Shown here: positions 47,775 to 47,828 of the stretch, piece by piece | How the letters are laid out: every line of letters starts with the position of its first letter | How positions within the stretch are numbered: the first letter of the stretch is position 1 | NCBI RefSeq assembly: GCF_050920415.1 | Contig: NZ_CP169309.1 | Source: Escherichia coli | Lineage (GTDB): Bacteria > Pseudomonadota > Gammaproteobacteria > Enterobacterales > Enterobacteriaceae | Length of the DNA: 64,000 bases | Strand: one strand, 5' to 3' | Notes under the pieces: model-generated | What the model saw: the letters and a program-made list of their open reading frames with translations, nothing else | Databases searched by the model: none | What the model was told of the DNA's origin: nothing | Made by a program: the position numbers and the translations under genes

Positions 47775-47808
47775 ACAAAATGGCACTGCCGAAACAATGC
47801 CATTTTGT
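47775..47808. promoter_or_regulatory. perfect 11-bp inverted repeat ACAAAATGGCA-N12-TGCCATTTTGT overlapping a minus-strand promoter-like element
   Basis: dyad read directly; minus strand has TTGTTT-17-TATAAA spanning it. Confidence 0.5.
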
Positions 47809-47815
47809 AAACTTT

Positions 47816-47828
47816 GGGGGGGGGGGGG
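47816..47828. repeat. homopolymeric G13 (C13 on minus strand) tract
   Basis: 13 consecutive G at 47816-47828, intergenic, just upstream of the dyad/promoter on the minus strand. Confidence 0.9.

Follow-up and report, generated by a model that had tools for sequence, protein, structure and literature searches.

A conserved promoter-like and hairpin cassette with a private G13 tract in an mEp021-like prophage of Escherichia coli

At 47.8 kb of a 64-kb stretch of Escherichia coli DNA (hereafter the window), a perfect inverted repeat overlaps a promoter-like element and lies next to an uninterrupted run of 13 G residues. The initial annotation read the repeat as an operator and proposed that slippage in the G run could switch the downstream operon on and off. 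This raises the questions of what kind of element the repeat belongs to, whether related phages share it, and what the tract is likely to do to it.

The 47.8-kb element and its prophage setting

The features on which the initial annotation was built are all present. The arms ACAAAATGGCA (47775-47785) and TGCCATTTTGT (47798-47808) form a perfect, fully complementary 11-bp inverted repeat with 12 nt between them, which is the top-ranked short-range inverted repeat of the window. On the plus strand, ACAAAATGGCA, the 12 nt and TGCCATTTTGT are followed by AAACTTT and the G run. As assembled, the run is exactly 13 nt long. It is indeed unusual, being the only G/C run of at least 8 nt in the window and its only homopolymer longer than 8 nt of any base. 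On the minus strand it lies upstream of the dyad, 7 nt away, and about 18 nt upstream of the -35-like hexamer. The promoter-like pair TTGTTT and TATAAA, separated by a 17-nt spacer, was likewise found on the minus strand as described. The features of the element are, from upstream to downstream on the gene strand:

47829-47838, minus strand: GCGTGATCTA, containing CGTGA (47837-47833), the promoter-distal half-site of a conserved CRP-type dyad
47816-47828, plus strand: G13 (C13 on the gene strand)
47799-47813, minus strand: forward copy AGTTTACAAAATGGC of a dispersed motif, left hairpin arm, 1 nt (A at 47798) upstream of the -35-like hexamer
47775-47808, minus strand: hairpin of 34 nt, 15-bp stem with U.G pairs, UUCG loop at 47790-47793
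47792-47797, minus strand: -35-like TTGTTT, within the hairpin (stem top and loop)
47775-47783, minus strand: reverse copy CCATTTTGT of the motif, right hairpin arm, located in the spacer, abutting the -10-like hexamer and supplying the TGn of an extended -10
47769-47774, minus strand: -10-like TATAAA
47461-47768, minus strand: predicted 5' UTR of about 30 nt (RBS GGAGGG) and first downstream gene (90 aa, phrog_7287)

The putative core reads TTGTTT-cggcagtg-CCATTTTG-tTATAAA, with TGn directly before the -10. It matches the consensus at three of six positions in the -35 and five of six in the -10, and the final T of the -10 is absent. Among all copies of the element described below, TTGTT is invariant and the sixth base varies; the -10 reads TATATA or TACATA in the relatives, and every copy keeps T1, A2 and A4 and has A instead of T as its last base. 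The promoter scan of the window did not list TTGTTT-17-TATAAA because the last base of the second hexamer is A and not T.

The prophage in the window is of the mEp-immI (mEp021-like) type. The region matches the Escherichia phages MagusPhagus, mEp010, mEp554 and mEp044 and, among 5,426 complete E. coli genomes, the prophages of 30-31; the immunity region is 91-93% identical to mEp021 and its relatives. The mEp-immI phages are non-lambdoid temperate siphoviruses with a CI-like repressor, the N-like antiterminator Gp17, which acts at three nut sites, and a Q-like protein, and their prevalence in human-gut isolates has been reported to equal that of lambdoid phages (PMC11893012). Genes of the window were assigned by placement on the mEp021 map, with support from database matches where indicated:

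61089-61736: repressor, lambda CI-like (PDB search, E 3e-19)
60299-60589: N-like gene (mEp021 map)
53309-54067: cytosine methyltransferase, preceding nutR2 (mEp021 map)
51048-51770: Q-like gene (phrog_127, E 2e-78)
44935-45135: holin (mEp021 map)

The neighboring genes of the 47.8-kb element are all encoded on the minus strand, and the element fills a 108-nt gap between a stop codon (47842-47844) and the ATG at 47733. The downstream genes encode small phage proteins, the first of which belongs to a family of unknown function. Only two intergenic gaps of more than 13 nt are found between the Q-like gene and the holin gene, namely this one and a 105-nt gap directly before the holin gene. The pre-holin gap carries a homolog of mEp021 TERM_5, a strong terminator consisting of ACCCGGCCCCGCGCCGGGT followed by TTTTTG (45160-45178, minus strand) that is nearly identical to the mEp021 sequence, and is a conserved candidate for the late-promoter/terminator region. 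Since the 47.8-kb element is the first gap of this size downstream of the Q-like gene, a Q-dependent late promoter equivalent to lambda PR' was considered there. An essential late promoter was rejected: mEp021 has neither the element nor a copy of the dispersed motif between Q and holin. The absence of the element from mEp021 also indicates that it is accessory and dispensable for the phage. The G13 tract itself is intergenic, and the open reading frames that cross it are overlapping or antisense and lack support; phase variation by frameshifting was rejected on these grounds.

Hairpin, CRP-type dyad and G tract in related copies

To compare the element between phages, 50 copies were collected from IMG/VR, metagenome contigs, E. 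coli genomes and phage records, comprising 24 distinct sequences. The dyad stem is conserved in all 50 copies though the genes on both sides differ between phages, there being nine or more different genes upstream and three or more downstream. By this comparison, the element is a 75-nt cassette that forms a conserved linker between highly mosaic gene blocks. The closest relatives of the window are found in O157:H7 LSU61 and in 2017C-4173W12 and share 98.8% identity with it across 1 kb.

On the gene strand, the dyad extends beyond its 11-bp arms, as the 12-nt spacer pairs further via U.G. The resulting fold has a predicted energy of -20.2 kcal/mol (z -7.3), compared with -15.4 kcal/mol and only 11+2 bp on the plus strand. 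Across the 24 distinct sequences, 359 of 360 stem cells (99.7%) are paired on the gene strand and 82.5% on the other strand. Ten stem pairs are invariant; the remaining five vary on one side only and always to G.U or U.A, whereas all four loop bases and the closing pair are free to vary. No double compensatory change in the stem was found among the 24 sequences. This pattern of conservation fits a hairpin formed by single-stranded RNA of the gene strand. That the dyad exceeds chance is indicated by the conservation of its stem in every copy and by the word forming its arms, which is about ten-fold over-represented in the prophage. An Rfam scan from 44.0 to 62.5 kb (E up to 1) yielded no family at the hairpin. 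Its only hit was a weak, sub-threshold Thr_leader match in the phage early region (58979-59070, minus strand; 29 bits, with the gathering score at 55; E 0.067), which probably arose by chance. N4-type hairpin promoters and HK022 put-like RNAs were considered and dropped, as the element bears no resemblance to them.

The hairpin starts 33 nt after the upstream stop codon and has the stable stem of a Rho-independent terminator. In the GenBank records of mEp010 (T8) and mEp554 (T10), it is annotated as such on the basis of ARNold predictions. Its U-tract, in contrast, is poor, with tail scores of 1.39 for the full stem and 2.36 for the upper 8-bp stem, compared with 3.85 (pre-holin) and 4.01 (TERM_4-like) for the clear terminators of this phage, and the terminator scan of the window did not list it. 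As judged from these features, the hairpin would be a weak terminator at best. The original interpretation of the dyad as an operator had missed a 15-bp, G.U-containing hairpin on the gene strand that is a predicted terminator elsewhere.

Upstream of the hairpin, the relatives share a second dyad. On the gene strand they read (T/C)GTGATCT-nnnn-(T/C)C(A/G)CA-AAGTTT-hairpin, in which GTGATCT is nearly invariant across the 50 copies and the dyad takes the form (T/C)GTGA-N6-(T/C)C(A/G)CA. Its match to the CRP consensus TGTGA-N6-TCACA is 10/10 in 18 copies, 9/10 in 6 and 8/10 in 10, and hence at least 8/10 in 34 of the 50. The invariant positions, GTGA of the left half-site and the C at the second and fourth position of the right half-site, are those that CRP reads most strictly. 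In 47 relatives the dyad is centred 48 nt upstream of the -10. This distance would place the centre near -61, an activator position typical of class I CRP-dependent promoters of the lac P1 type, in which CRP is centred near -61.5. Consensus matching and spacing make CRP a candidate participant at the putative 47.8-kb promoter.

The G13 tract sits inside this conserved dyad, a point that had escaped the operator interpretation. In the window, the promoter-proximal half-site is replaced (CCGCA to CCCCC) and 6-7 bp are added. The site reads CGTGA-TCTACC-CCCCC, which matches the CRP consensus at 6 of 10 positions and falls short of a CRP site. The dyad centre lies 55 nt instead of 48 nt upstream of the -10, a displacement of about two-thirds of a helical turn, and so departs from the class I spacing of -61.5. 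Even prior to the expansion, the dyad of the window's lineage was degenerate, with a 7/10 match.

GTGA and the hairpin are 21 nt apart in 47 copies (C4 or less), 22 nt apart in the two C5 copies and 28 nt apart in the window only. The C5 copies are the two closest relatives, which read GCGGGGG at the tract position. Altogether, C4 was found in 11 copies, C5 in 2 and C13 in 1, and the remaining copies have interrupted runs. In complete E. coli genomes, full-length matches are 160-161 nt long, as opposed to 167 nt in the window. No long allele was detected in the 5,426 complete E. coli genomes (31 of which carry the element), in a hairpin scan of IMG/VR, or in a variable-gap scan of metagenome contigs (JGI/ENA), where the four matches are all C4; species-representative genomes gave no match to the element. 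The proposed check of tract length across isolates lends no support to a phase switch: the 49 other copies carry C5 or shorter, and a second long allele was not seen. A run of 13 nt is intrinsically prone to slippage, and the tract shares with contingency promoters a long homopolymer within or upstream of the core promoter. Phase switching is thus possible, but a selected on/off switch is unsupported by the comparison. The likeliest reading of the alleles is a private slippage expansion from C4 over C5 to C13, which would decouple the promoter from its upstream site.

A dispersed motif and a shared promoter-like layout

The arms of the dyad are two inverted copies of TACAAAATGG, the most over-represented word of the prophage. 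The 9-mer TACAAAATG occurs in 10 exact copies against 1.08 expected, no shuffled sequence had more than 4, and all copies lie inside the prophage and none in the host part of the window. In an unbiased count, the three commonest 9-mers of the prophage are overlapping words of ATACAAAATGG. The same over-representation of TACAAAATG is found in mEp021, where it is one of the top 9-mers and occupies homologous positions. The full form of the motif is (AGTTT)ACAAAATGG(C). Exact copies in the window start at:

TACAAAATG, start positions: 19855, 28137, 28207, 31427, 47801, 53230, 53296, 60290, 60968, 60990

Many copies are associated with promoter-like sequences. Between the repressor and N-like genes, the motif abuts the -35 of a PR-like promoter, TACAAAATGGA-TTGACT-17-TATATT (60937-60976; copy at 60968-60976). 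Placement against a -35 is likewise seen at 28207 (plus strand) and at promoters of reverse-strand moron genes. In the PL-like promoter, it lies in the spacer/-10 region (61810-61822), with a further copy at 61774-61782. Additional copies are found just after the N-like gene and on both sides of the terminator upstream of nutR2. Ahead of the tape-measure gene, both the window (31427/31454) and mEp021 (37649/37676) have an inverted pair whose gap is again 18 bp. The distal motif copy at PR is not conserved in mEp021.

As would be expected of a repressor operator, the repeated site overlaps core promoter elements and recurs at the promoters of the immunity region. Since the motif marks these promoters, the simplest interpretation is a binding site for a phage regulator. 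The CI-like repressor suggests itself and is probably the regulator concerned, because the motif is present at both immunity-region promoters and is common to all members of this single immunity group. TACAAAATG is accordingly put forward, from its placement in the sequence, as a candidate operator for Rep021, whose operators were not defined in the published description of the group, which does not mention CRP either (PMC11893012). Deriving the operator from a structural homolog was not successful, as the PDB search returned only a lambda CI-like repressor, which did not reveal the operator. A motif beside the -35 also resembles a proximal UP-element subsite, and a dedicated binding protein is therefore not required. 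Independently of the motif, the PR-like TTGACT-17-TATATT (60927-60965, minus strand) is bracketed by an 8-bp inverted repeat, TTGACTCG ... CGAGTCAA, that has one mismatch in mEp021. This repeat is an alternative operator candidate.

The arrangement of the 47.8-kb element is not restricted to this locus. A systematic scan was performed for a CRP-type dyad followed by about 18 nt, TTGnnn, N8, CC(A/G)TT(T/C)TG and TAnnnT. Three sister sites were found in the window and four in mEp021, and the dyad centre is always located 47-48 nt upstream of the -10:

Window 61810, plus strand: dyad 9/10, PL-like, followed by nutL-like boxA
Window 53232, minus strand: dyad 10/10, nutR2 boxA TGCTCTTTAAAAA within about 20 nt
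Window 56824 (56824-56880), minus strand: dyad 9/10
mEp021 11086: dyad 9/10, counterpart of the PL-like site of the window
mEp021 16566: dyad 9/10
mEp021 20143: dyad 9/10
mEp021 37651: dyad 8/10

At two of the window sites, the cores are followed by boxA-like sequences:

61762-61823, plus strand: PL-like promoter with the CRP core match TTTGATACAAGTCACA (9/10), its centre 48 nt ahead of the -10, followed by TTGACC-N8-CCATTCTG-TAAACT
61901-61913, plus strand: nutL-like boxA TGCTCTTTAATAA, downstream of the PL-like promoter
53226-53304, minus strand: paralogous cassette upstream of nutR2 with forward motif, terminator hairpin, UUUUU and TTGTTC-N8-CCATTTTG-TATACT
53199-53211, minus strand: boxA TGCTCTTTAAAAA, after the PR2-like promoter core

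The positions of the boxA sequences fit nutR2 and nutL as described for mEp021, and the 53.2-kb cassette is a homolog of the mEp021 TERM_4 and nutR2 region (PMC11893012). In this cassette, a 15-bp hairpin (53250-53300, minus strand) whose top is a perfect CRP core, TGTGATTTTGGTCACA, is followed by UUUUU and lies immediately upstream of the promoter-like core; the hairpin is enclosed by an outer stem formed by a motif pair (-35.1 kcal/mol, z -6.0). TTGTTC of the 53.2-kb cassette and TTGACC of the PL-like promoter have the same N8 spacing to CCATTYTG as TTGTTT at 47.8 kb. TGTGA-N6-TCACA sites with at most one mismatch occur 6 times in the window, compared with 1.7 expected. A further perfect CRP core, TGTGATCTGCATCACA, is found at 26497-26560 (plus strand), followed by GCCAAAATGGA-TTGATA-17-TATATT and facing small moron genes in reverse orientation.

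By its layout, the 47.8-kb element would be a weak member of an upstream-activated family of phage promoters. The original proposal of a promoter with an operator thereby gains indirect, comparative support from the recurrence of the motif at the immunity promoters and of the layout at the seven sister sites; it had overlooked that the whole element is an accessory cassette without counterpart in mEp021. The recurrence of the layout at PL, upstream of nutR2 and at 56.8 kb makes an operator-flanked promoter at 47.8 kb plausible, probably combined with a hairpin acting as leaky terminator or insulator.

Competing explanations, known systems and implications

Taken together, we hold with moderate confidence that the locus is a conserved 75-nt control cassette, combining a promoter and a hairpin, in which the G13 tract is a private slippage expansion. 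From the observed sequence, conservation, paralogy and spacing, we infer the following mode of action. In a temperate coliphage of the mEp021 type, the cassette would separate blocks of accessory genes located between the gene for the Q-like antiterminator and those for lysis. As DNA, it would provide a weak sigma-70 promoter whose -35 is flanked by two inverted motif copies, to be bound by a phage regulator, probably the CI-like repressor, while the CRP-type dyad about 48 nt upstream of the -10 (roughly -61) may serve as a class I activator site. Transcripts reading through from upstream would fold the 15-bp hairpin, which is probably a leaky terminator or an insulator between cassettes. In the window, the G13 tract overwrites the proximal half of the CRP-type dyad and pushes its centre 7 bp away, out of helical phase. 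The most likely effect is that upstream activation of the accessory promoter is weakened or uncoupled.

Several other explanations were weighed against this one. The element may be a simple Rho-independent terminator of the upstream block that is read through with the help of N-like (Gp17) or Q-like antitermination systems, with the hexamers and the motif incidental and the G13 a mere spacer. The ARNold predictions in mEp010 and mEp554, the strong fold on the gene strand, the wobble-compatible substitutions that maintain pairing on that strand only and the position directly after a stop codon, in one of the two larger gaps between Q and holin, all fit such a terminator, and this phage group antiterminates over several terminators in an N-like manner (PMC11893012). 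The poor U-tail and the omission of the hairpin by the terminator scan do not; moreover, a terminator leaves unexplained why the arms consist of the most over-represented word, which is found at promoters in non-hairpin contexts, as well as the shared layout of -35, N8, motif and -10 and the fixed distance of the dyad. This explanation is regarded as unlikely. Even less support can be given to the idea that the inverted motif pairs act mainly as RNA stems, i.e. processing or stability signals in a polycistronic early transcript, rather than as protein-binding DNA. Significant folds occur at 53.3 kb and at 37.6 kb of mEp021 (-16.9 kcal/mol, z -4.8), and a variant pair at 61.8 kb (TACAGAATG / CATTTTGTG) can pair via G.U on the minus strand. 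The folds at 31.4, 28.2 and 56.8 kb, however, equal shuffled sequence (z +0.02, -0.29 and -0.65), the copies at 60290, 60968/60990 and 19855 are single or direct repeats that cannot pair, and no Rfam family matches. With some pairs folding no better than shuffled sequence and several copies single or in direct repeat, RNA pairing alone cannot explain the motif, and we consider this role improbable.

Two further explanations concern the tract only. It may be a contingency tract that switches the downstream genes, specifically by a change in length that re-phases the CRP-type half-site relative to the core. In favor of this, the tract is the only long homopolymer of the window, the lengths in the lineage are stepwise (C4, C5, C13), and the dyad centre is about 7 bp out of register, such that a gain of roughly three C would shift it close to the next class I position in helical phase. 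E. coli is not known to depend on contingency loci of the homopolymer type. Furthermore, one long allele in 50 copies and none in the complete genomes, IMG/VR or the metagenome contigs speaks against a switch; the identical 21-nt spacing in 47 copies indicates that the site is length-constrained and not population-variable, the run itself destroys the proximal half-site, and the small downstream phage proteins offer no obvious gain from switching. With an activator-type site on one side and the core promoter on the other, the tract has the same geometry as the C-stretch in Bordetella fim2, fim3 and fimX (PMC1891110); even so, a switch of this kind seems quite improbable here. A similarly low probability is assigned to an assembly or sequencing artefact that conceals a true allele of about C5. 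The tract is unique among all copies, the closest relatives read C5 at this position, and of all sequences, long G/C homopolymers are the most difficult to call, whatever the platform. The flanks are nevertheless perfectly collinear with these relatives, and a miscall would have to include a C-to-G change together with a gain of 6 nt, which is beyond typical homopolymer errors. With the long ORFs of the phage intact (1139, 790 and 779 aa) and no other aberrant homopolymer in the window, a general indel error seems unlikely.

The favored cassette resembles several known systems in part. With the terminators t1-t5 of mEp021, which are antiterminated by Gp17, it has in common that a stable stem-loop of the transcribed strand follows a stop codon within an operon under N-like control; it differs in the lack of a proper U-tract and in a stem built from a motif that recurs at promoters, and it is not among the terminators described for mEp021 (PMC11893012). 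The relatives resemble class I CRP-dependent promoters in the distance of TGTGA-N6-TCACA from the -10 and the weak -35, and the three sister promoters of the window share this spacing; the window differs from them by C13 in place of the proximal half-site and by its centre at 55 nt. Repressor sites dispersed over a genome are known from the C1 operators of phage P1. They are also known from the stoperators of mycobacteriophages, which are spread over the prophage genome (PMC9283540, PMC6550527). As in both cases, a short asymmetric motif occurs here in about ten or more intergenic copies genome-wide, including the immunity promoters. Unlike in these systems, the motif is found in both orientations and often in inverted pairs, and the repressor is of the lambda CI type, for which dispersed sites are not the norm. 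In Bordetella fim2, fim3 and fimX, single-base length changes in the C-stretch alter transcription (PMC1891110). That stretch is alike in being a poly-C of about 13 nt in the promoter region upstream of the core elements, but it is polymorphic across strains and species, whereas the long tract occurs here as one private allele, at a site of otherwise constant length.

A more far-reaching interpretation would combine these parallels into one previously undescribed, genome-wide regulatory layer of the mEp-immI phages, which with their CI, N-like and Q-like proteins are otherwise lambda-like in appearance. In it, (AGTTT)ACAAAATGG would guard at least 5-6 secondary promoters, early and late, in the manner of P1 operators or stoperators; several of them, including PL and the promoter feeding nutR2, would be class I cAMP-CRP-dependent, and the fim-like C-stretch at 47.8 kb would create a new hypermutable, potentially phase-variable promoter. 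As a joint claim this is doubtful. If true, it would tie phage development to the carbon status of the host.

The G13 tract is best regarded as a private mutation in an accessory prophage cassette and not as a demonstrated switch. If its length is real, the isolate is a natural mutant for the spacing of the upstream site at these promoters. The dispersed motif and the CRP-type promoter layout are more useful leads than the tract itself: TACAAAATGG gives concrete candidates for the operators of Rep021, and the fixed 47-48-nt layout at PL, before nutR2 and elsewhere points to a possible input of cAMP-CRP into the antitermination cascade of these phages.
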